In this document: in pieces, positions 4,336 through 40,130 of the stretch
How positions within the stretch are numbered: position 1 is the stretch's first letter
Layout: every line of letters begins with the position of its first letter
DNA from: Terriglobia bacterium
Lineage (GTDB): Bacteria > Acidobacteriota > Terriglobia > 20CM-2-55-15
Direction: 5' to 3'
Assembly (NCBI GenBank): GCA_965218585.1
Contig: CBDCLE010000002.1
Span: 160,001 to 224,000, forward strand
Length of the DNA: 64,000 bases
The notes under the pieces: model-generated
Databases searched by the model: none
The model's input: the letters and a program-made list of their open reading frames with translations, nothing else
What the model was told of the DNA's origin: nothing
Position numbers and translations under genes: made by a program

Positions 4336-4923
4336 TTATAAACTCAAGTTCTTCACAACGCCCCTCAGCATGCCGGCCTGGCCAAGGTGCATCAGGGTGT
4401 GGTTGAGACCCCACCAGAGGAGTGCTGATTCCCGCGATCGGCCTGGAATGAATTGCTCTGCGTCTGAACTACAGACACCCGCCTCAACTGCCAGACGAAC
4501 GTCGGACACGTCGACCCCAGCATCCCACTTGTCGGGCCACAGGTCTTTGACCATCTCTCGTGTTCGGGTTCCTACCTCATCGCGATAATCCCAGAGCGCC
4601 GGCAGGTTAATCTCTTCGGAAAGGTTTCTCACTTCATCCTTTGAGGTGCTCACGTCCCGTCTGGACACATTCAACCGATCACTCCAGTTTTCCTCGTTAA
4701 ACAACTGCCCTCGACTCATCACGACACAACTGACGTAGCCGTCCTCGACTCTCGCTATATGCCAAAACAACCATGCGAACGAATTCATCCCATGCGGTTG
4801 CACTCGCAGTTGGGCCTCTGTCATTCCTTGGAGTAAGTAATCAATGTTGAAGGGGTCCGCCCGAGCCACGGCTTCGGTGTGTACGAACGCATGGTCGCGC
4901 AAGAAGCGCTCAATCGGCGTCAT
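4336..4923 (-). CDS. DinB/YfiT-like family protein
   Basis: NSFAWLFWHIARVED and NHTLMHLGQ His motifs. Confidence 0.75.
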   Translation of the reverse strand: MTPIERFLRDHAFVHTEAVARADPFNIDYLLQGMTEAQLRVQPHGMNSFAWLFWHIARVEDGYVSCVVMSRGQLFNEENWSDRLNVSRRDVSTSKDEVRNLSEEINLPALWDYRDEVGTRTREMVKDLWPDKWDAGVDVSDVRLAVEAGVCSSDAEQFIPGRSRESALLWWGLNHTLMHLGQAGMLRGVVKNLSL

Positions 4924-4996
4924 TAAGACTCCCTACGAGGACCGCTCGTACTCTTCGGTCGGTATTTTGGCATCAATCTGTGTGTTCCGACTCGAT

Positions 4997-5799
4997 TCAT
5001 CTAAAGATCTTTAGAAGCCAATCGACGACTCGAGGTTTGCCGCAAATCATGTTGTAGGCCAACCTCCCATCAGCCAACTTCTGGGTGCCCGTGATAACGA
5101 ACCTACCTCCGGCCTCCTCTATAAGCAACTGCGTGGCCGCAAAGTCCCAATAGTTCAGATAGTAGTCGACCATCGACCGACCGAACCCTTGACCGCAAGC
5201 GTGTGACCGAAGCAACCGCGAATTGTTCTGACGAGGGGGTGACTGTCCAGCAGCAGTTTGAATTTGCCAATAGAGTTCGCCAGTCTGAAGGCGTAGATGT
5301 CTCCAGTGGCGACCATTTCATCTTTAACCTGTTTCGCCTCGATGTCCTTTATGACAACTCTCGAGCCGTTGCAGTGCGCCCCACCACCTGAAACCGCGTG
5401 ATAGAGCAGGTTCAAACTCGGATGATTTATGACAGATACGATCGGCCGATCCTTGTGACACATAAAAATGATCGTTCCGTAGGAGGGAAACCCGAACGTA
5501 AAGTCCAACGTTCCATCTATGGGATCTATCCACCATCTGTAATCAGAGTCCTTGCTGCTCCTACCCAATTCCTCGCCTGTCACATCGTGCTCGGGAAAGG
5601 CCTGCTTGATGTCTGCTCGAATCATTTCCTCTACACCAGTATCCACGTTCGTAACGAAGGATCCGTCGTCTTTCGTCTTCGTTTGGAAACCGCAGACGAC
5701 CTCCTTCCTGATAAACGAGTCGGTTTTGCGAGCAGCAGACAGGGCTACCTTTAGGAAGCTTTCTTTTTCTTTGCGGGAAGGACCCATTGTCCCTTTCAC
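4997..5799 (-). pseudogene. Inositol monophosphatase / histidinol-phosphatase family, frameshifted near 5175
   Basis: GEE and WWIDPIDGT in ORF 5155..5799; WDFAATQLLIEEAGG in ORF 4997..5215; one base missing at GSVG-(x)MVDY. Confidence 0.85.
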
Positions 5800-6599
5800 G
5801 GCAGAAAACGGATCTCAAACAAACTCGGCCACAGCTTTCCTGTCACGAAGACGCGGTCGGTCTCCTCGTCATAAGCGATTCCGTTCAGGACACCGTCGGG
5901 GTCAGCCATCTCTACTTGTCCGACGATGTCAGACAAGTCCAGTCGACCCACGACCTGTCCCGTCTCCGGGGAGATCTTCAGGATCTGGTTCGTGTACCAG
6001 ACGTTCGCGTAGACATGGTCTCCTATGTACTCAAGCTCATTCAATTGACGGATCGGCCCGTTGGCATCCGTCACTTCTATCTGACGCGTCAACTCGAGAG
6101 AATCCGGGTCCAGAAAGTACAGGTACGCTGAGCCATCGCTCATGATCAGGTGCGTTCCGTCCTCGGTAAGACCCCAGCCTTCACGTGAATAACTGAACTG
6201 CGCCCGAACCTCGAACGATTCCTTGTCGTATATGAAACCCGTTCGCGAAGTCCACGTCAGTTGGTAGATCCGGTCGCCAAACGCCACAATACCTTCACCA
6301 AAGAACTGCGATGGTAGGACAGCCTCCTGCAAAACCGTTCCGGTCTGGAGGTCTACCCTGCGCAAGTATGATTGGCCGTTGCGTCCTGTACCCTCAAACA
6401 GAAATCCGTTCTCGAAATACAGGCCCTGGGTGTACGCGTTGGGATCGTGAGGATAGACCGCAACGACCTCATGACGAATAACATCAGTACTTTCCTGACG
6501 GCGCGAGAAAACGATCGTAGCCGAGAGCAATATCGCCAAGCCGCCTGACAACCACAGCAACCGCCGCCCTGAACGAGCTTTTCTTGTGCGTCGCGTCAT
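5796..6599 (-). CDS. Glutaminyl-peptide cyclotransferase (glutamine cyclotransferase)
   Basis: YPHDPNAYTQGL, FFGEGI, EGWGLT, LNELEY, VLNGIAY, VTGKLWP; likely start MTRRTRK at 6599. Confidence 0.92.
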   Translation of the reverse strand: MTRRTRKARSGRRLLWLSGGLAILLSATIVFSRRQESTDVIRHEVVAVYPHDPNAYTQGLYFENGFLFEGTGRNGQSYLRRVDLQTGTVLQEAVLPSQFFGEGIVAFGDRIYQLTWTSRTGFIYDKESFEVRAQFSYSREGWGLTEDGTHLIMSDGSAYLYFLDPDSLELTRQIEVTDANGPIRQLNELEYIGDHVYANVWYTNQILKISPETGQVVGRLDLSDIVGQVEMADPDGVLNGIAYDEETDRVFVTGKLWPSLFEIRFLP

Positions 6600-32117: not shown

Positions 32118-35051
32118 TCAGAACGTGAACTTGAGTCCGAACTGAGCCTGGAAGGGTCGTAACACTGAGCGGGCCTGCCCAAAGGACGACGACGACTCGT
32201 TCCCCTGGAAACGGAGCAGGTTGGCGGTGTTGAAGACATTGAACATCTCCCACAACACTTCAACGTTCTTGGTTTCGTCTATGAAGAACCTCTTGCTCAA
32301 TCTCAGATCCGTGTTGAAGAAATTATCGCCCCTCTCGGAATGGACACCCACCCCGGGGGAACGATCGTTTCGGAACCCGTCGCCGTTGTTGTCCCGGCCC
32401 GTCGTCTTATCGTAGGGTGGGGCGCTGTTGGCCGTAACAATCGTGCTCACGTTTATGTCGAAAGGCGCCTGATATATCAGGTTAGCCGTGAGCCGGTGGC
32501 GGACATCGTTCTCTGCCGGGCCGAAGTGTACGTCTCCAAACTTGTCGTTCGGGTCGGATGGCGCGACACCGATGATTACCGGAAACCCTCCCCGGTTGAA
32601 CTCCTTCGCGCTACCCAACGTGTAACCGAGGAGAAAACCGAAACGGTTTGAAAACGATCGGTCCAGCCTGAGAGAAAGCGAGTTCACATGGATCCGTCCG
32701 CTCTGGTCGTGACCCAGCCTCATACCAAAGTCGCAGAGAGAGTCTGTTATTCCGTTGGCGATGAGATCGGCATCGAATGGACAAATTCCATTGGGCAGGG
32801 GCGCGTTGACGTTCCGGCTCATCAAAAAGTTCAGCCCCAATATATGCGTAAAGTCGGCCGAAAAGGCCGTGTTGGGCGAGACCTCGTATTGGAAACCCGC
32901 ACTCGTGTGCTGTGTGTAGGGTGTGTTGCCGCTTGGAGAGGGCACGGTCGTCGAACCGGCCGGGAGGGCATCGCCTGCCGGGGCGTTCGGGAAGAAACTC
33001 TGGACGACTAGCGGGTCCCGTTCTCTGACGGTCTGAATATTGAGACCGTTGTAGCCATTGACGATACTCCGATGGGTCAGCGTCGGGACTCGGTCGTGGT
33101 AAATTCCGTAGCTGCCACGAATCACTGCCTGTCCGGTTCCAAGAACGTCCCAGGCAAAGCCCACCCTCGGAGACACATCCATTGTGTCGGTCGGGGTTGG
33201 ACGCCACGGCTGGAGGCCCAAAGTTCCCGCTGCTCCCAGAGCTACGTTCAACCAGACGTCTTCAGGCCTGTCGCGGGAAAAGCCCGGCTGTTCGAAGGGA
33301 TCGGGACCGCCAAGATCTCCTTCGAGAACACGCAGGTCGTACCGCATCCCCAGGTTGAGGGTCAGGGTCGGAGTCACGCGCCAGGTGTCGTTAACGAAAA
33401 GACCGTACATATCCATGTCACGATCCACCTGGGTAAGCGTAGGGTCTCGGGAATCTCCCCGGGCGAACTGCAGGTTGAAACCGGCCTCGTATTCGACGGG
33501 CAGAAACGGGGCCTCGTCGGTTTCGAAAACAAAGGAACCGTTGAAGTCTTCGTTGGTATCGTTGGTGGCCACCACGTCGTTCATCTCCCCGCCCCACTTC
33601 AGCGTGTGGTTACCCCACTGGTAGGTCGTCGTATTGGTGATGATCCAGTTCTTCTGGTTGCGTCCTTGCGGCACTGCGCTGCCATCCAGACCGATGTTGA
33701 CCGAGGGAAAGATCAAACCAGGGAGGAATTTGGAGGCTTCCCGAATGCTGCGGAAGAGCCGTTGGCTTGAACGATTGATGCGAAATTCGTTAACCGTGTT
33801 TGCGCCTATCAGCGAGGTCCAATTCGCGGTCGCGAAGTAAGAGTTGTTGAGATCGTCGAAACCGCGGTCGGCGGCGTCTTCTCCCCCGATGTCCTTGTTT
33901 ATGTCGTTGTCGTCGTCATAGAGATAGGTGAGATGCAGCGTGTTTCGCTCGTCCAGATTGAACGTGAACTTGCCGATCGCGTTGAACTGTTCCCTGTCCT
34001 GCGAGACCACGCTACGTGTGTCGTAGCCGAGGTTGAGGGAGTCCACGAACGTCTTGACCGTATCTGGGATCGTGATTACGGAGCTCTCCTTATTCGTCTT
34101 GCGTTCGAAGGAAAGGAAATAGAATGCCCTGTCGCGCGCGATCGGCCCACCGATCGTTCCGCCATACTGCTTGGTCTTGAACTCGGGAACGTCTCCATCC
34201 TGGAACGGAACGCCGCCCCTCAGTCGAAACGCCGGCTTGTCGAAGGCGTCGTCACGGATGAAGTAGAAGGCGCTTCCGTGGATTTCGTTACCTCCCGATT
34301 TCAGGACAACGTTGATCGCTCCGCTGCCGCTGCGGCCGAACTCCGGCGAATAACCGGTGGACATCACCTGAAACTCCTGAATCGCTTCCTGCCCCAGGCG
34401 GGTTCGGGTCGCCCCGGATATATTCGTGCCACCACCAACCACTTCGTCATTGAAGTCGACTCCGTCAAGCCAGATGGCCTTGTGCGGTTCATCCATGCCG
34501 AAGAAGCTGATGGAATCGGTGGCACCCGACCGAACGGAACTCTGATCGAGTACGACCCCTGGGGCCAGCAACGCGAGATCCATAAAATCGCGAGCCTTCA
34601 GGGGCAGTTCCTCGACCCGAAAGTTGTCGACGACGGTTCCGACACTGTGTTCGGTCGTCCGGACAAGAGGGGCATCACCGGTAACCGTGATGGATTCGGT
34701 CACCTGGCCGACTTCCATCGTGAAATCGATCTTGATCTCACCCTGGATTGGAAGAGTCACGCCGGAACGTGTGGCCGAACGGAAGCCCTCCAGTTGGACC
34801 GCGACCTCGTATCCTGCTGGCTGCAATCCTGTTGCTCTATAGGCACCGGCCCCGTTAGTAATTACGTCCCTTTGGGCACCGGTCGTCGTGTTCCTTATAC
34901 GAACGGAAACGCCGGGAAGCGCGGCGCCCGTACTATCAACAATGTCACCAATGATGGAGCCGGTTGTCGATTGGGAGTAGCCAGTAGCTGTTAAACCGCC
35001 TGTGAAACCAAGGCTGAGTACAACCGTCAGAATTCCTTCAACAAGCCGCAT
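32118..35051 (-). CDS. TonB-dependent receptor with N-terminal carboxypeptidase-regulatory-like domain (Oar-like)
   Basis: G.I.G.IVDSTGAALPGV, LPL..RDF..LA.LAPGV, AIQEFQV....SPEFGR, C-terminal QFGLKFTF. Confidence 0.92.
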   Translation of the reverse strand: MRLVEGILTVVLSLGFTGGLTATGYSQSTTGSIIGDIVDSTGAALPGVSVRIRNTTTGAQRDVITNGAGAYRATGLQPAGYEVAVQLEGFRSATRSGVTLPIQGEIKIDFTMEVGQVTESITVTGDAPLVRTTEHSVGTVVDNFRVEELPLKARDFMDLALLAPGVVLDQSSVRSGATDSISFFGMDEPHKAIWLDGVDFNDEVVGGGTNISGATRTRLGQEAIQEFQVMSTGYSPEFGRSGSGAINVVLKSGGNEIHGSAFYFIRDDAFDKPAFRLRGGVPFQDGDVPEFKTKQYGGTIGGPIARDRAFYFLSFERKTNKESSVITIPDTVKTFVDSLNLGYDTRSVVSQDREQFNAIGKFTFNLDERNTLHLTYLYDDDNDINKDIGGEDAADRGFDDLNNSYFATANWTSLIGANTVNEFRINRSSQRLFRSIREASKFLPGLIFPSVNIGLDGSAVPQGRNQKNWIITNTTTYQWGNHTLKWGGEMNDVVATNDTNEDFNGSFVFETDEAPFLPVEYEAGFNLQFARGDSRDPTLTQVDRDMDMYGLFVNDTWRVTPTLTLNLGMRYDLRVLEGDLGGPDPFEQPGFSRDRPEDVWLNVALGAAGTLGLQPWRPTPTDTMDVSPRVGFAWDVLGTGQAVIRGSYGIYHDRVPTLTHRSIVNGYNGLNIQTVRERDPLVVQSFFPNAPAGDALPAGSTTVPSPSGNTPYTQHTSAGFQYEVSPNTAFSADFTHILGLNFLMSRNVNAPLPNGICPFDADLIANGITDSLCDFGMRLGHDQSGRIHVNSLSLRLDRSFSNRFGFLLGYTLGSAKEFNRGGFPVIIGVAPSDPNDKFGDVHFGPAENDVRHRLTANLIYQAPFDINVSTIVTANSAPPYDKTTGRDNNGDGFRNDRSPGVGVHSERGDNFFNTDLRLSKRFFIDETKNVEVLWEMFNVFNTANLLRFQGNESSSSFGQARSVLRPFQAQFGLKFTF

Positions 35052-35259
35052 CTTGTAGTCCCCTTACGAAAGCAAATGTCCGAGAGTGAATCCGGGCTAT
35101 GAATATGCGGATAAATATATCATGGGATGTCTTTTAGCGAAGGAGGCGCGCTTCCGGCCCAGCGGTGGAGTTGGGGGACTTGAAAAGAACGGACGCACTG
35201 GCTCTGACTCAGCCTTAACCGCTAGAAACGGCAAAGCCAAAGCGTCCATCCGTCGAAAG

Positions 35260-35538
35260 CTAGTGACCTGTGCCACCCATATTGGGACCAGCGTTGCGGC
35301 CAAACGGCGCCGGATTCTAGGAGCCGATGAGGAGGGAATGCTCCTCATTCCGACAAGTCGGCGACAACGAAGACGGCGCCGTTTCGCCGCCACCCTCCGG
35401 GCCGATGGGGGTTGCGGGCGATATCTTTGTTGCGAGCCGTCGTCGATGCAAAAACATCGCCTTCCGTCTCCCGCCGCGATCTCACCCGCAAAACCCATCG
35501 GCGCTGGTCCCAATATGGGTGGTAGTACAGGCCACTAG
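35260..35538. mobile_element. MITE-like non-autonomous element (279 bp) bounded by CTAG
   Basis: About 35-bp terminal inverted repeats CTAGTGACCTGTGCCACCCATATTGGGACCAGCG / CGCTGGTCCCAATATGGGTGGTAGTACAGGCCACTAG. Confidence 0.72.
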
Positions 35539-36062
35539 TTCCCGATCTCGACTTCCTCCCCGTTGCTCAAGCTCGCAACGTAGGCGGCCAGATCACTGGA
35601 ATCTTCACTAGCAAGATCCAACGGCTGCCCCATCATGAACATCTGGAGGCAGTTGTTATTCATGACTGACAGCGTGATGACGGAGTCGTTGGGAACCTTG
35701 TACTTGGGGTACGTCGCACCAGCCCCAACAAGCGTCGGGATCGGCATCGCCGGCCGCATGCCGTTGCTCAGCGGCATCGGGATCTGGGTCGTACCACCTG
35801 TTGTCTCACCGCCGGGATGGCAGCTGTTGCAGGAAAAACCGTTACTTCCCAGGTCAGCGTTGTTGAACAGCTCCTGACCATGCTGGACGCCTTCGCGCTG
35901 CTTCGTCATCATGTACTGCATCCGCTCTTCTTCGCTCATGTCCACCATGACTCTCGACATGTTGTCCAACGCCATCTGCATGGCGGGACTCGGCCCCTGG
36001 GCCGTTGCGACCAACGAGACGACTAAGACAAAACCTACCGCAATCAATAAGATCTTTTTCAT
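35535..36062 (-). CDS. Exported monoheme cytochrome c, SoxA/TsdA-domain-like, Met-rich
   Basis: Signal peptide; CNSCH; YPKY...TL...NNC....M.G..L...S....L.AYV pattern; RBS AAGGAG. Confidence 0.82.
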   Translation of the reverse strand: MKKILLIAVGFVLVVSLVATAQGPSPAMQMALDNMSRVMVDMSEEERMQYMMTKQREGVQHGQELFNNADLGSNGFSCNSCHPGGETTGGTTQIPMPLSNGMRPAMPIPTLVGAGATYPKYKVPNDSVITLSVMNNNCLQMFMMGQPLDLASEDSSDLAAYVASLSNGEEVEIGN

Positions 36063-36192
36063 TTAAATGCTCCTTTTGGTTCCGGGACTGGCTCTTCTTG
36101 TTTGTCTGGATGTTCAGGCGCCTGGTCGGGCGGATGTCGAATCAAACGTGAAGCGCATGACAATCAACATACGTTTGCGCGAAGAAGGATTC

Positions 36193-36272
36193 TGTAAGCT
36201 GGCGCACATCGCACGTTGCGAAAACGAACGGAGAGGAAAAATTAAAAACTAAGAACTGTAAGCGGTGTTACA
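36193..36272. promoter_or_regulatory. Two Crp/Fnr-type boxes upstream of the cytochrome c gene
   Basis: TGTAA-gctggc-GCACA (36193-36208) and perfect TGTAA-gcggtg-TTACA (36257-36272); minus-strand -10 TATGTT at 36166-36171. Confidence 0.65.
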
Positions 36273-36279
36273 CCGGGGA

Positions 36280-36978
36280 CTAGATAGCGGCTTTTCGCTG
36301 GAGTCCCGTGATATTGTCGATCTGAACACGCTTGCGGCCGATCGATACCAGGCCCTCTCTTTTCAGGCGATTCAACGCAGTCGTAACGGTCTCTCTATAG
36401 ACCCCAAGATGGTCGGCCAGTTCTTCGTGAGTTGTGGCTATGGTGTCTGTACCGTTCTCGGACCTTAATCTCAAAAGGAGGGCGGCCAACTGGTTGGGAA
36501 CTTCGTGGAAGAGAGTCTGTTCGAGCCTTTCCTCAGATTCACGCAACCTTCCACCCATCGTTTCGAGCAAACGCACAGCAATTTTGGGCTTGGAAAGGAT
36601 GAGCTTTTCCACATCCTGCCGGTTCATGACGCATATGAGCGAGTCTTCGAGAGCCTCGGCAAAGGCGTCGTAGAGCCCTGTTCCGACAAGGCTCATCTCG
36701 CCGAAGATCGTCCCTGGACCCAGGGTTTCGATAACGAGTTTCCTGCCTTCAGAGGACATCCTGTAGATCTGGACCTTGCCTTTCTTCAGGATAAAAATCA
36801 CATCGCCATACTGGTTCGGCGAATAGAATATTTTTCCAGCCTGACAGGTTGTCATCGCTGTAGACTCTGCGATCTCCTTCATCTCGTCAGAGCTGAGATC
36901 CCGGAATATGTCCACTGTGGCGAGGTAACCGATTTTAGTTTCTGGCTGCGAACTGTTGGTTCGCAGCAGAGAAAGCAT
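36280..36978 (-). CDS. Crp/Fnr family transcriptional regulator
   Basis: cNMP-like domain (G.V.IY....GR...I..LGPG.IFGEM); HTH THEELADHLGVYRETVTTALNRL; start uncertain. Confidence 0.93.
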   Translation of the reverse strand: MLSLLRTNSSQPETKIGYLATVDIFRDLSSDEMKEIAESTAMTTCQAGKIFYSPNQYGDVIFILKKGKVQIYRMSSEGRKLVIETLGPGTIFGEMSLVGTGLYDAFAEALEDSLICVMNRQDVEKLILSKPKIAVRLLETMGGRLRESEERLEQTLFHEVPNQLAALLLRLRSENGTDTIATTHEELADHLGVYRETVTTALNRLKREGLVSIGRKRVQIDNITGLQRKAAI

Positions 36979-37054
36979 CTTCTGAGATAGTTTCAATGTC
37001 CTAACCCCGAATCCATGCGATGGCCACAAACTGGATCGGCAAAAAGGATCCTGT

Positions 37055-37104
37055 TGTAGGTCGCATTACGTATTTGGTATTCAATCTGCGGTAGCCTGAT
37101 CAAC
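37055..37104 (+). promoter_or_regulatory. Crp/Fnr-type box and -10 element of a leaderless promoter
   Basis: TGTAG-gtcgca-TTACG centred 42.5 nt before ATG 37105; TAGCCT at 37092-37097. Confidence 0.55.
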
Positions 37105-37353
37105 ATGCAAGGGAGACGGCTCGTTGTTTTTGTCAGCGATCACTGCCGAACATGCCCCGATGCTGTGGACACCGCCAAGAGACTAGATGAGCGATATCCC
37201 GAACTGGAAGTCGAACTCTTCAACATCGACGACCGGAAACCACGGGACGAAGTGTTCGCTGTTCCAACCTACATGTTGGACGATGAGATCATCTTCCTTG
37301 GAAATCCAACAGACAAGCAGATCCACGAATTATTGGAACCTGCATCGAAGTAG
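37105..37353 (+). CDS. Small thioredoxin/glutaredoxin-like protein
   Basis: VFVSDHCRTC (CxxC); VFAVPTYMLD...FLGNP cis-Pro loop. Confidence 0.82.
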   Translation: MQGRRLVVFVSDHCRTCPDAVDTAKRLDERYPELEVELFNIDDRKPRDEVFAVPTYMLDDEIIFLGNPTDKQIHELLEPASK

Positions 37354-37359
37354 TCACCT

Positions 37360-38067
37360 TCACAAGAGATCCTCAATCACGCCCCGTAACTCCTCTTCGT
37401 CCGCAATCCCGACGTGCTTATAAGCGACTTTTCCGTTTCGATCCAGAATGAAGGTCGTGGGAATGCCATAGATGCCGCCCGCTTCAGTCTCGATCTCAAA
37501 GTCACTCATCACGATCGGATAGTTGACGCCGAGATCGTCCAGAGTCTCCACGATGGCGGCCGTGTTTTCGGGGTCTTCCGTAATGCCGATGACCGCAAAC
37601 TGTTCGGCGTCATATAGATCCACCATTTCAACAAACCAGGGCATCTCCTCGCGGCAAGGCGCGCACCATGAAGCCCAGAAGTTGATTACGGAAACCTTCC
37701 CAGAAAGATCGGATGAAGAAATGGTCTCGCCAGCAAGAGTGCTCAATTCGAACTCGGGGAAGACCTCGTCATAGCCGGGTGCCTCTTCAATCTCATCGAT
37801 CACAGCCCCATCGGCGTCGACGACAAGGTGAAACCGAACCTCCTTACCTCTCTCGATACCATCGAGGAGAGAGGGGTCGGCAACGGAAAAGGGCATCGTC
37901 ATCGATTGCATGTATCCGGGGATGGTGTCGTGAAGCAAGGTCACGCTTTGTCGGTCCGGGGAGACTTCTGAAACGACGCCTAACACATCGTAATCTCTCG
38001 GGATCACAGGCTCCGCAGCGCAACCGGCCAGCGCAACAAGCCCCGCGACTACAGCAAATGTTTTCAT
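37360..38067 (-). CDS. Lipoprotein: CusF-like copper-binding domain fused to a TlpA/ResA thiol-disulfide reductase
   Basis: Lipobox LAGC; HDTIPGYMQSMTMPF; NFWASWCAPCREEMP; GIPTTFILDRNG. Confidence 0.88.
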   Translation of the reverse strand: MKTFAVVAGLVALAGCAAEPVIPRDYDVLGVVSEVSPDRQSVTLLHDTIPGYMQSMTMPFSVADPSLLDGIERGKEVRFHLVVDADGAVIDEIEEAPGYDEVFPEFELSTLAGETISSSDLSGKVSVINFWASWCAPCREEMPWFVEMVDLYDAEQFAVIGITEDPENTAAIVETLDDLGVNYPIVMSDFEIETEAGGIYGIPTTFILDRNGKVAYKHVGIADEEELRGVIEDLL

Positions 38068-38115
38068 GACCTTCTACTCACAAAAATCATTCGAACCGAA
38101 CCACTCACAACGGAA

Positions 38116-38131
38116 TGTAATCCAGACCACA
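38116..38131 (-). promoter_or_regulatory. Crp/Fnr-type box upstream of the CusF-TlpA gene
   Basis: TGTAA-tccaga-CCACA. Confidence 0.5.
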
Positions 38132-38252
38132 TAATTTCTTCACCGGCCAGTATTTGAGACGGGTCCTATCCAAAATTGTTTACCTATTTTTTACGGAAGG
38201 CTAGAGAAAAACGGGGCAGGTGCCTTAAAGGCGAAAACACGAAGAGTCTTTC

Positions 38253-38330
38253 ACCGCAAAGAAGCGAAGGCGCAAAGAAATCTTTTTCGGAACCGGGCAA
38301 AGACCCTTTGCGTCTTCGCGCCTTTGCGGT
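38253..38330. repeat. Periodic hairpin repeat, copy B
   Basis: ACCGCAAAGAAGCGAAGGCGCAAAG...CTTTGCGTCTTCGCGCCTTTGCGGT. Confidence 0.75.
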
Positions 38331-38339
38331 TAATCCCTC

Positions 38340-40130
38340 TTATGTTCGATCTGCTATGGCACCCTTTGCCAGGGCGAGGAATTCGTCAATCGGTTTGGCC
38401 TTGAGGTCTTCTCCGGATCTCAGTCGAACCGCCACAGCGCCCGCCTCCACTTCCTTATCTCCCGCAACAAGCATGTAGGGGATCTTCTGCAACTGAGCCT
38501 TACGGATCTTGGCGTTCATGCGATCACGACCATCGTCGATGTCGACGCGAAGCCCCTCGGCTTTCAGCTTCTCGACCAACCCACGGCAGTATTCTACATG
38601 CCGGTCGGCGATCGGAATCAGAACAGCCTGAACCGGCGCCAGCCAGACCGGGAACGCGCCGCTGTGGTGTTCGATCAGGATTCCAAAGAAACGCTCCATA
38701 CTTCCCAACAGGGCTCTGTGAATCATGTACGGGCGGTGGGGGGCTCCGTCTTCACCCACGTAGTTCAGATCGAAGCGTTCCGGAAGATTGAAGTCGAACT
38801 GAATCGTACTCAACTGCCATTGCCGGCCGATAGCATCGTCGACGTAGATGTCGATCTTGGGCCCGTAGAACGCGCCGTCGGCTTCGTTAATTTCAAACGG
38901 CAGGCCCGAACGCTTCAACGACTCTTCCAGCGCCGCTTCGGCCTCGTCCCAGTTGGATTCCGCTCCGACCCGCTTTTCGGGACGCGTGCTCAGAAACAGC
39001 GTGAACTCTTCAAACCCAAACGCGCGCAAAATGTCCAGGCTGAAGTTCAGGACCTTGTCGATCTCGGCGGGCATCTGATCCGGGCGACAGAAAAGATGCG
39101 CATCGTCCTGGGTGAATCCCCGCACGCGGGTCAACCCGTGCAAGACTCCACTTCTCTCATAGCGATACACCGTGCCCCACTCGGCAAGCCGAATAGGCAA
39201 ATCCCGGTAAGAGCGAACGCCGCTCTTGAATATGTCTACGTGGAACGGACAGTTCATCGGCTTCAGGTAGAACTCCTGCTCATCGATTGTCACCGGCGCG
39301 TACATGCCGTCGGCGTAGAAGTCGAGGTGGCCACTGGTCTCCCACAGCGACGCCCGCCCTATGTGCGGTGTGTAGACGAAATCATAACCACCCTTCAGGT
39401 GTTCTGCCTTGCAGTATTCCTCGACCAGATAGCGGACCAGTCCTCCCTTGGGGTGCCACAGAACAAGGCCGCCGCCGATCGTGTCGGGGTTGATGCTGAA
39501 CAGATCCAGATCCACGCCCAGGCGGCGATGGTCTCTCTTCTTGGCTTCTTCGAGTCGGACGAAATACGCCTTCAGTTCCTTCTTGTTGTCGAAAGCGACT
39601 CCGTAGACGCGCTGCATCTGGTCCCGCGACTGGTCTCCACGCCAGTACGCGCCCGAAACGCGGGTCAGCTTGAACCCATCCGGACGAACCGAGCCGGTAT
39701 TCTCGATGTGAGGGCCGCGGCAAAGATCGACGAAATCTCCGGTCTTATAGACAGTGACGGTGTCGACGTCACTACCGACGAGGTTTTCGTCCTCCAGATC
39801 CTTGACGGCCGTCGTCCCACGGCTCTTCAGATCATTCAGCAGTTCGACTTTGAAACTCTGCCCCATCCTGTCGAAGCGCGCTATGGCCTCCTCGATCGGC
39901 ATCTCCGACCGCTCGAACGTAAGCTTCTCGCTCACTTTCTGCCGAATCTTCTGCTCGATCTTCTCCAGATCATCGGGCGTCAACGGAGTGTCGAGATAAA
40001 CGTCATAGTAGAAACCGTCCTCGATGACGGGACCGACGCCGAACTTCGCTTCGGGATGAAGCTCCTGAATGCTGGCCGCCATCAGGTGGGCCAACGAGTG
40101 CCGTATTGTCTCCAGATCTTCCTTAGCCAT
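38340..40130 (-). CDS. thrS: Threonine--tRNA ligase (no N-terminal TGS domain)
   Basis: IRHSLAH, DLCRGPH, RDHRRLG, KPMNCPFH, GAFYGPK, IHRALLGSMERF. Confidence 0.97.
   Translation of the reverse strand: MAKEDLETIRHSLAHLMAASIQELHPEAKFGVGPVIEDGFYYDVYLDTPLTPDDLEKIEQKIRQKVSEKLTFERSEMPIEEAIARFDRMGQSFKVELLNDLKSRGTTAVKDLEDENLVGSDVDTVTVYKTGDFVDLCRGPHIENTGSVRPDGFKLTRVSGAYWRGDQSRDQMQRVYGVAFDNKKELKAYFVRLEEAKKRDHRRLGVDLDLFSINPDTIGGGLVLWHPKGGLVRYLVEEYCKAEHLKGGYDFVYTPHIGRASLWETSGHLDFYADGMYAPVTIDEQEFYLKPMNCPFHVDIFKSGVRSYRDLPIRLAEWGTVYRYERSGVLHGLTRVRGFTQDDAHLFCRPDQMPAEIDKVLNFSLDILRAFGFEEFTLFLSTRPEKRVGAESNWDEAEAALEESLKRSGLPFEINEADGAFYGPKIDIYVDDAIGRQWQLSTIQFDFNLPERFDLNYVGEDGAPHRPYMIHRALLGSMERFFGILIEHHSGAFPVWLAPVQAVLIPIADRHVEYCRGLVEKLKAEGLRVDIDDGRDRMNAKIRKAQLQKIPYMLVAGDKEVEAGAVAVRLRSGEDLKAKPIDEFLALAKGAIADRT

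Follow-up and report, generated by a model that had tools for sequence, protein, structure and literature searches.

Regulators of the Crp/Fnr superfamily are textbook sensors of cyclic AMP (cAMP), oxygen, nitric oxide (NO), carbon monoxide (CO) and 2-oxoglutarate. Here we describe a putative regulon centred on one such regulator gene, crp, which lies next to trx3, a gene for a small thioredoxin-fold protein, and is accompanied by genes for a cytochrome c and a CusF-TlpA fusion lipoprotein. The locus occupies positions 35535-38131 of a 64,000-nucleotide (nt) stretch of DNA from a Terriglobia bacterium (lineage 20CM-2-55-15; assembly GCA_965218585.1, contig CBDCLE010000002.1, positions 160,001 to 224,000), and this whole stretch is called the window below.

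In FNR, three N-terminal cysteines and Cys122 ligate a [4Fe-4S] cluster, and the protein recognizes the box TTGAT-N4-ATCAA. NtcA binds 2-oxoglutarate and has valine at the glutamate position of its recognition helix, and haem is the cofactor through which CooA, Dnr and HcpR respond to CO or NO. FLP of Lactobacillus casei, CprK and FixK2 are redox-sensitive Crp/Fnr members, most of which are inactivated by oxidation. In the OxyR/Grx1 system of Escherichia coli, a thiol reductase belonging to the sensor's own regulon reduces the sensor. For PrfA of Listeria, a redox interaction with TrxA has been reported (excerpt of PMC5487381). NtcA has a GTA-N8-TAC box centred about 41.5 nt upstream of the start site (excerpt of PMC3898017). 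HcpR2 was predicted by Rodionov et al. (2005) to be an NO/nitrite regulator of hcp with the motif GTAACnnnnGTTAC; in the excerpted text of that paper (PMC1274295) it carries proline in place of CRP Glu181 and always co-occurs with hcp.

The regulator described here resembles NtcA in its box core (GTA-N8-TAC), the -41.5 position, the TAnnnT type of -10 hexamer and the domain architecture. This is a likeness in mode and not in membership, as the protein falls far short of the NtcA model, has thiol-redox genes as predicted targets and Trx3 as partner, and comes from a different phylum. With FLP, CprK, FixK2 and PrfA it may share an activity tied to the oxidation state of cysteines within a Crp-type factor; to our knowledge, and as compared by description only, none of these has been reported with a dedicated adjacent Trx_3 gene, the box of this regulator or its cysteine pair. 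The HcpR2 motif as excerpted from PMC1274295 is nearly the same palindrome as the box found here, but the subfamily of our regulator has an invariant Arg-Glu at the Glu181 position and no proline. Full-text searches retrieved no paper describing this subfamily, the pairing of Crp and Trx_3 genes or the fusion of CusF with TlpA, which is no proof of absence in print. What comparison with relatives supports well is the predicted architecture of the regulon: one type of box, its class II position and the trx3-crp pair.

Layout of the locus

The features of the locus, read along the window, are as follows (aa, amino acids; ORF, open reading frame).

35535..36062, (-) strand: cytochrome c gene, 175 aa, with signal peptide and CNSCH haem motif (Pfam and ORF reading)
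36166..36171, (-) strand: candidate -10 hexamer in the cytochrome c promoter, TATGTT, 21 nt past the proximal box (sequence reading and genome geometry scan)
36193..36208, unstranded: proximal box TGTAAGCTGGCGCACA in the cytochrome c upstream region, at the class II position
36257..36272, unstranded: distal box TGTAAGCGGTGTTACA, perfectly palindromic, at 64 bp from the proximal box and 8 nt beyond the crp stop codon
36280..36996, (-) strand: Crp/Fnr-family regulator gene crp, most likely 238 aa from TTG 36996 (longest ORF from 37029)
37055..37070, unstranded: box TGTAGGTCGCATTACG between the divergent genes trx3 and crp, in class II position relative to trx3
37092..37097, (+) strand: candidate -10 hexamer TAGCCT of the trx3 promoter, 21 nt after the box and 7 nt before ATG
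37105..37353, (+) strand: trx3, small thioredoxin-fold protein, 82 aa, CRTC motif, no signal peptide
37360..38067, (-) strand: cusF-tlpA, CusF-TlpA fusion lipoprotein gene, 235 aa, WCAPC motif (Pfam)
38089..38094, (-) strand: TCGAAT, candidate -10-like hexamer for cusF-tlpA, 21 nt past its box; a weak match, not TAnnnT
38116..38131, unstranded: box TGTAATCCAGACCACA in the cusF-tlpA upstream region (sequence reading)

The initial annotation, made from the letters of this DNA, had proposed the four boxes, the hexamers TATGTT (36171..36166, minus strand) and TAGCCT (37092-37097) and the identities of the four genes. We found every box at the place proposed and letter for letter as given, both hexamers present and each 21 nt from its box, and gene identities that Pfam and curated-model searches bore out for all four.

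All four boxes sit in short intergenic stretches, and three of them have an exact 21-nt spacing to a hexamer; with transcription assumed to start 7 nt past the hexamer, this puts the box centres at -41.5. The distal box TGTAAGCGGTGTTACA, one of 16 perfect matches genome-wide, has no -10 hexamer at class II spacing on sequence reading.

The trx3-crp pair and its promoter are conserved

We compared the source genome (G000; 4.55 Mb, 95.5% complete) with 40 related genomes and with a metagenomic sample of 80 loci carrying a regulator homologue of 46-80% identity. A box was searched for as TGTA-N8-TACA with up to one mismatch. Judged by sequence comparison, the conserved core of the module is the pair of trx3 and crp.

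Regulator orthologues at 80% identity occur in three of the 40 related genomes (G007, G013 and G017, from two other genera), and none was detected at E ≤ 1e-20 in four same-genus genomes. The gene order thrS - DUF1028 - cusF/tlpA - trx3 - crp is kept in all three, with the cusF-tlpA match split in G013 and insertion sequence (IS) elements inserted in the G007 locus. When the trx3/crp intergenic regions of these genomes and G000 were aligned, the trx3 box was the best-conserved block in all four, from three genera, and TGTAGG(T/C)CGC(A/G)TTAC was the sole well-conserved one. The layout of box, 21 nt, TAnnnT, 6 or 7 nt and ATG is kept despite divergence of the spacers, the hexamer being TAGCCT in G000, TACATT in G013 and TAACGT in G017 and G007. 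This implies a predicted class II activation and a probably leaderless trx3 mRNA.

The metagenomic loci extend this pattern. There trx3 adjoins crp in 37 of the 80 loci, or in 31 of the 63 with at least 330 nt of upstream sequence, as it also does in G007, G013, G017 and G258. A box precedes trx3 in 17 of 27 metagenomic upstream regions, compared with 4.5% of 2000 random 210-nt windows. The total number of boxes in the 80 loci is at chance level (74 vs 79.9 +/- 7.7 in shuffles), but boxes followed by TAnnnT at 20-22 nt number 31 vs 6.5 +/- 2.3 in shuffles. The histogram of the box-TAnnnT spacing peaks sharply at 21 nt (n = 19) and 22 nt (n = 10), every other spacing from 8 to 39 nt having 0-4 cases, and this peak puts the box centre at -41.5/-42.5, which is the position of a class II activator. 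The oriented logo of 27 distinct sites reads TGTAA-N6-TTACn. Genes downstream of class II boxes in the metagenomes are mostly trx3; the others include crp, TrxA-type thioredoxins, a small membrane protein and a DUF6789 protein. Seven metagenomic trx3 promoters have leaders of -1 to 2 nt. Comparison thus shows the usual predicted target of the subfamily to be trx3 next to crp, often co-transcribed with crp and often leaderless.

In G087, whose regulator is 51% identical, a box, 21 nt and a hexamer precede both a thioredoxin gene (CATAAT) and a CMD/AhpD-like gene (TACACT) beside crp. In G258, trx3 and crp are co-directional and face two thioredoxins, a CcdA/DsbD_TM protein and a TlpA-like protein. 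Neighbours of more distant regulator homologues are varied and include Lgt, DegV, ferredoxin with a PIG-L deacetylase, AhpC/TSA and a pyridine-nucleotide disulfide oxidoreductase. The Crp/Fnr regulon at class II position suggested at the outset has thereby gained strong comparative support for trx3, with the same 21-nt geometry at cytochrome c and, with the weaker TCGAAT, at cusF-tlpA. The suggested NtcA-type variant of the box holds as well, GTA-N8-TAC at -41.5 being what the 27-site logo and the 21-22 nt peak display. So does the thiol-redox theme, since genes for Trx, TlpA-like, CcdA/DsbD_TM, AhpC/TSA and CMD/AhpD-like proteins are found under or next to these boxes in relatives.

Trx3 matches PF13192 (Thioredoxin_3) with 28.9 bits against a cut-off of 24.8. 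In an alignment of 17 sequences the second cysteine of its CxxC motif is invariant and the first is present in at least 90%; VFAVPTY (VPT) and LGNP are conserved. By its sequence, the protein is a small cytoplasmic thioredoxin-fold protein.

In the G007 locus (L061), transposase genes (DDE_3, DDE_Tnp_1_4) lie at 1796-2881 and 4790-6244, one of them between trx3 and crp, and a fragment of the cytochrome gene (residues 1-90, with stop) is found 2.3 kb beyond crp. These insertions and the fragment indicate a region prone to rearrangement.

The regulator belongs to a large Crp/Fnr subfamily

The regulator is a member of the Crp/Fnr superfamily (PF00027, 70.4 bits, cut-off 27.5; PF13545, HTH_Crp_2, 59.6 bits, cut-off 27), and its best solved relative is CRP of T. 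thermophilus (4ev0, E = 2.7e-25). A length of 238 aa is the most likely one, as homologues of 238-239 aa align with it end to end at 100% cover. Its recognition helix reads YRETVT, and it has two conserved cysteines, Cys51 and Cys122 (238-aa numbering); the latter presumably corresponds to Cys122 of FNR. Among 26 aligned homologues, Cys122 and the Arg-Glu of the recognition helix (YRETxT) are invariant, and Cys51 is conserved to at least 90%. In 4ev0 the cAMP phosphate is bound by an Arg-Ser pair, which aligns with Tyr-Asp here, and none of the 26 homologues has an arginine in the corresponding cassette (FGEM...Y/H-D/N-A/T-FAEA).

The protein fits none of the four groups compared, CRP, FNR, NtcA and HcpR2. 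CRP proper was rejected for the absent Arg-Ser and a score of 49.8 bits with the CRP equivalog, compared with 266. FNR was rejected as the protein has no N-terminal cysteines but only Cys51 and Cys122, its box is TGTAA-N6-TTACn, and the Fnr model gave 39.6 bits vs 228. With the NtcA model (TIGR03697) it reached 52 bits vs a cut-off of 244.95. Membership in HcpR2 fails on the invariant Arg-Glu and on hcp (PF03063), which was not found in the 95.5% complete G000. The NO link raised by the initial annotation is thus not supported, the regulator keeping the glutamate that HcpR2 has replaced according to the excerpt of PMC1274295.

The window regulator is the sole Crp/Fnr protein found in G000, being the only strong HTH_Crp_2 match; a weak second match turned out to be an ArsR-methyltransferase fusion. 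Its homologues at E ≤ 1e-30 exceed 1200 proteins, mostly metagenomic, and the named ones are labelled Acidobacteria. At E ≤ 1e-55, only two of 400 sampled genomes of the phylum have a homologue (G087 and G258). Comparison shows a large, uncharacterised subfamily, defined by the recognition helix YRETxT and one predicted type of box at the class II position.

Six loci (L109, L110, L119, L122, L125 and L130) have crp homologues with valine for Cys51, and all except L119 are without an adjacent trx3. Downstream of crp they carry a small 4Fe-4S ferredoxin gene (unmatched in L110 and L122) and a PIG-L/LmbE-type deacetylase gene; the PIG-L/LmbE family includes enzymes of mycothiol and bacillithiol synthesis.

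Cytochrome c and CusF-TlpA as probable local additions

The cytochrome matches PF21342 (SoxA/TsdA) with 53.2 bits vs a cut-off of 27. Residues C78, C81, H82 and C138 are invariant in 23 homologues, and Cys138 aligns with the cysteine after I-G-D in the haem-1 domain of TsdA (4wq7, residue 96 by our own count), which we take to be a haem ligand. The earlier His/Cys reading of this cytochrome is thus upheld at the level of predicted ligation. It resembles TsdA and SoxA in the PF21342 match, the CxxCH motif and this distal cysteine, but is a single 175-aa haem domain under a Crp box and not a di-haem enzyme. The SoxA equivalog and di-haem TsdA were accordingly rejected as identities (TIGR04484, 55 bits vs 110; one CxxCH in 175 aa). 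As regards a role in sulfur metabolism, also proposed initially, nothing bears on it beyond this homology.

Methionine makes up 16 of the 175 residues. The family consists of mono-haem proteins of 175-195 aa with invariant CxxCHPGG and NNC and with Met-rich N- and C-terminal tails. In 13 of 20 distant loci it sits with a roughly 350-aa multi-haem cytochrome c; a protein ending in a CarboxypepD_reg domain is encoded in most of those loci as well, and the cytochrome gene often occurs in tandem copies. The cluster recurs across many phyla (L006-L044; Gemmatimonadota, Zixibacteria, KSB1, Calditrichota, Acidobacteria and others) as one or two mono-haem SoxA/TsdA-like cytochromes, the roughly 350-aa multi-haem cytochrome c and a roughly 250-aa CarboxypepD_reg protein, and we know of no function assigned to it. 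A Crp gene lies near a cytochrome homologue in only two of 43 loci, and the one in L011 was rejected as an orthologue (31% identical, helix SRQTVA, no boxes), which suggests that membership of the cytochrome in this regulon is a local, lineage-specific recruitment.

CusF-TlpA combines CusF_Ec (PF11604, 60.5 bits vs 27) with a redoxin domain (AhpC-TSA, 78 bits; Redoxin, 74.8 bits) whose nearest solved relatives are ResA, DsbE and TlpA, and sequence reading gives a lipobox, LAGC. The presumed metal-ligand positions of CusF (H, M, M) are kept in comparison with 1zeq and 2qcp, and W44 is replaced by M. Its likeness to TlpA/ResA/CcmG and CusF proteins thus comprises both domains above the Pfam cut-offs, WCAPC and the CusF ligand positions, and its difference from them is that the two domains are fused in one lipoprotein. 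The curated ResA model (83.8 vs 170) and TlpA model (66.9 vs 230) do not reach their cut-offs. From these domain matches, the protein is a CusF-like, predicted Cu(I)/Ag(I)-binding domain joined to a TlpA/ResA-like thiol:disulfide oxidoreductase domain. This architecture is rare, both domains occurring together in 15 of the 36 hits listed, and cusF-tlpA was found in two of the 80 metagenomic crp loci. As far as such comparison reaches, the gene is local to a narrow lineage and not part of the conserved core.

The initial annotation had regarded the four genes as one unit. This view did not survive comparison, since the conserved core is trx3-crp and the cytochrome gene is absent or broken in all related genomes searched.

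In G017 (L063, about 5400-5650), an inverted repeat, CGGTCCGAAATACGGT ... ACCGTATTTCGGACCG, replaces the cusF-tlpA upstream region that holds the box elsewhere; it is probably another small mobile insertion.

Traces of the module in same-genus genomes

In two genomes of the same genus, G001 and G003, the tlpA stop codon is adjoined by what is left of the trx3 3' end, which suggests that trx3 and crp were deleted there. The cytochrome gene carries a frameshift in G001 and has lost its 5' half in G003. G001 keeps TGTAAGCTGGAGTACA at the position of the proximal cytochrome box, followed by TATCTT at 22 nt. At the place of the cusF-tlpA box both genomes have TGTAATCCAGGCCACA, and the related AGTAATCTGGCTCACA is found in G013. 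The cytochrome and cusF boxes are thus kept in same-genus genomes though the surrounding DNA diverged. The proximal box of the peroxiredoxin gene introduced below is decayed at key positions in both.

A peroxiredoxin gene and weaker candidates outside the window

A half-site matrix built from the four window boxes only placed TGTAATCCAGGCTACA and TGTAAGCCCGCTTACG, on contig C11 of the source genome, among the top ten genome matches. The two boxes, 72 bp from each other, precede a gene for a 1-Cys peroxiredoxin (PF00578 and PF10417). A full matrix included both of them in its training, so that their top scores there are circular and only the half-site ranks count. With two strong boxes in front of this gene, the regulon is not self-contained in the window, as had been assumed at first.

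Matrices and the geometry scan gave further, weak candidates: C1:132742, 300 nt upstream of a gene for a PSCyt/DUF1592 protein; C10:175252, upstream of htpX; C24:213671, upstream of a gene for a DctP-like protein; and C15:37529, upstream of dnaK. At C24:213671 (L162, gene 1222-2238, + strand), the box TGTAGTCAGATTTACG is followed by TACACT at 22 nt, and the start codon coincides with the position where transcription would begin. The gene product, 338 aa long and with a Tat-like signal, resembles DctP/TRAP solute-binding proteins. This site may be a further target or a chance match.

Box counts in comparison with chance

The window contains 12 boxes vs 5.61 expected from shuffles, and 12 or more occurred in two of 100 shuffles. 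G000 as a whole has 429 boxes in 4.55 Mb. When all 429 were placed at random, four fell within 2 kb in 31% of simulations, so the cluster of boxes alone is not significant. Counting only the 74 boxes in crudely called intergenic DNA gives a cluster P of about 0.0005, which overstates the significance, as the null spreads these 74 boxes over the whole genome and not over intergenic DNA alone. Boxes with class II spacing amount to 22 strand-specific matches genome-wide, compared with about 25 expected from base composition by our own arithmetic. With genome counts at chance level, further members of the regulon cannot be called, and the case rests on position and conservation, that is, on a local and phylogenetic signal. 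The initial annotation had reckoned that a genuine regulon would show conserved co-occurrence and an upstream motif in relatives as well as boxes beyond chance frequency; the former two were found for trx3-crp, and the genome-wide excess is absent.

The sole other box cluster in crudely called intergenic DNA of G000 is C4:104119-105343, with five matches, one of them upstream of a 273-aa ORF. Some of these boxes overlap at a 2-nt offset, which suggests simple TA-rich repeats and not regulator sites.

Surroundings of the locus

The four-gene locus is flanked by a 977-aa CarboxypepD_reg/TonB-receptor-like gene and by thrS. A search of 34900-38400 against Rfam gave no match at E ≤ 0.1, and a look for RNA runs covering the locus found none. 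At 35261-35535, the non-coding gap that follows the cytochrome gene consists of a highly structured repeat, about 265 nt long, with a perfect 21-bp outer inverted repeat (arms 35273-35293 and 35502-35522), two inner hairpins and a minimum free energy of about -151 kcal/mol. About ten more near-full-length copies (80-95% identical) lie on contigs C2, C10, C12, C14, C15, C17, C25 and C26, together with many fragments. It looks like a miniature inverted-repeat transposable element and has no Rfam match.

Thiol sensing and the alternatives

We favour, as a fairly probable reading, a small thiol-redox/oxidative-stress regulon driven by the sole Crp/Fnr factor of the genome, which would be a thiol-oxidation-sensing activator reset by Trx3. 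In this scheme the regulator would sense neither cAMP nor oxygen via an Fe-S cluster. Thiol oxidation (disulfide, peroxide or copper-driven stress) would instead be sensed via Cys51 and Cys122 in its sensor domain, and the oxidised regulator would activate the box-bearing promoters. Trx3 would then re-reduce the regulator and close a negative feedback loop, as Grx1 does with OxyR. The CusF-TlpA reductase and the low-potential His/Cys cytochrome, both periplasmic, might act on oxidised thiols of the envelope, repairing or draining them. What we infer here is the signal and the part played by Trx3. The thiol switch with reset by Trx3 seems to be the most economical proposal, since it covers at once the conserved pairing of trx3 with crp, the two cysteines, the loss of the nucleotide site and targets concerned with thiol redox. 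It resembles OxyR/Grx1 in its proposed logic, where an oxidised cysteine pair activates a small thiol reductase that resets the sensor, and in having peroxiredoxin and thioredoxin-type genes as targets. It differs in that OxyR is of the LysR type and the regulator here is Crp/Fnr, with a switch and a reset that are only proposed.

Several observations, however, speak against this reading. Both cysteines are present in 30 of 37 regulators with adjacent trx3 and in four of 32 without it in the metagenomic loci, but this association follows clades, and independent contrasts on a quick tree of 80 regulators left six usable pairs with a median p of 1, so the raw difference is not readable as co-evolution. 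On supported branches the cysteine trait went the same way in 1.4 pairs and the opposite way in 0.1, with no difference in 4.5. Cys51 is missing in seven of the 37 regulators with adjacent trx3. Beside an 80%-identical regulator, the Trx3 orthologue at L081:1439-1732 (- strand) has RPTC in place of CxxC and is thus a single-cysteine variant.

The promoters raise objections, too. Boxes and geometry matches stay at chance level throughout G000. The cusF-tlpA box is kept in G001 and G003 without the regulator, together with the hexamer TCGAAT, which is a poor -10 element though at the same spacing in these two genomes. At the peroxiredoxin gene, a TTGACA-17-TGTAAT promoter lies between the boxes and is likewise kept in G001 and G003 without the regulator; the proximal box is at about +1 and the distal one near -71, so neither is at the class II position, and the former suggests repression or a mixed mode. 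No box was found upstream of the peroxiredoxin genes of G007, G013 and G017, which have the regulator.

The same regulon architecture would also fit a regulator whose two cysteines serve to sense a metal, most plausibly Cu(I), with the module being an envelope copper-stress response. CusF-TlpA would then be a Cu(I) binder that mends the wrong disulfides caused by copper, a role also ascribed to the Scs proteins of Salmonella. Two conserved cysteines could indeed form a Cu(I) site, but the core target in the 80 loci is a cytoplasmic thioredoxin-fold protein and not a copper gene. The CusF domain keeps its H/M/M ligand positions, and a CusF-like ORF also precedes the cytochrome homologue in L041; even so, CusF is fused or adjacent only in a narrow lineage, as the 15 of 36 hits listed and the two of 80 loci given above illustrate. 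The cytochrome and its family are Met-rich with MxM-type tails, yet no copper exporter or multicopper oxidase is among the annotated neighbours. We regard copper sensing as unlikely; the CusF domain and the Met-rich cytochrome may still link the module to copper.

A further alternative to the thiol switch is a regulator whose cyclic-nucleotide-type pocket takes up haem or a small organic effector, the cysteines being structural and Trx3 a target only. The box and the -41.5 position match the NtcA pattern in the excerpt of PMC3898017, but the NtcA model score quoted above stays far below its cut-off. The predicted HcpR2 motif GTAACnnnnGTTAC is close, but the HcpR2 proline at CRP Glu181 (both in the excerpt of PMC1274295) meets an invariant Arg-Glu here, and the search of G000 for hcp found none. 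In line with this alternative, the contrast test did not support the link between the cysteines and trx3; the targets, though, are thiol-redox genes and not nitrogen or NO genes, and we consider this reading quite improbable.

That only the trx3 box is real, and those of cytochrome c, cusF-tlpA and peroxiredoxin are chance matches or relics, agrees with the chance-level box frequency in the genome and metagenomic loci, the 31% of random placements of 429 boxes with four in 2 kb, the cusF-tlpA box kept without the regulator and the atypical peroxiredoxin geometry, but it is very improbable given that all four window boxes lie in short intergenic stretches, three at exactly 21 nt from a hexamer, that the cytochrome and cusF boxes persist in same-genus genomes amid diverged DNA, and that the peroxiredoxin pair, 72 bp apart, ranks in the top ten of a matrix not trained on it.

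Meaning for the family and its hosts

A wider version of the thiol-switch reading, which we offer as a tentative possibility, is that the subfamily is the thiol-switch master sensor of disulfide/oxidative stress in a large group of mostly uncultured Acidobacteria-like bacteria. The Cys51/Cys122 switch would lie in the former nucleotide pocket and be reset by a dedicated thioredoxin that is encoded beside it, frequently as a leaderless message, forming an OxyR/Grx-type loop independently on a Crp scaffold, and the envelope modules would have been captured in the lineage described here. If so, the CusF-TlpA fusion and the SoxA/TsdA-like His/Cys cytochrome would act on protein or small-molecule thiols.

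The promoter grammar (box, 21-22 nt, TAnnnT, often a leaderless start) appears precise enough for start sites to be predicted from it. Two proteins of obscure role, the mono-haem SoxA/TsdA-like cytochrome family of many phyla and the rare CusF-TlpA fusion, also gain a putative regulatory context from the finding. Should the favoured reading prove true, a widespread Crp branch without a nucleotide site, with two cysteines and with its own thioredoxin would add a mode of thiol-redox sensing with built-in reset to this superfamily, and it would offer a first handle on stress regulation in poorly studied Acidobacteria-like bacteria.

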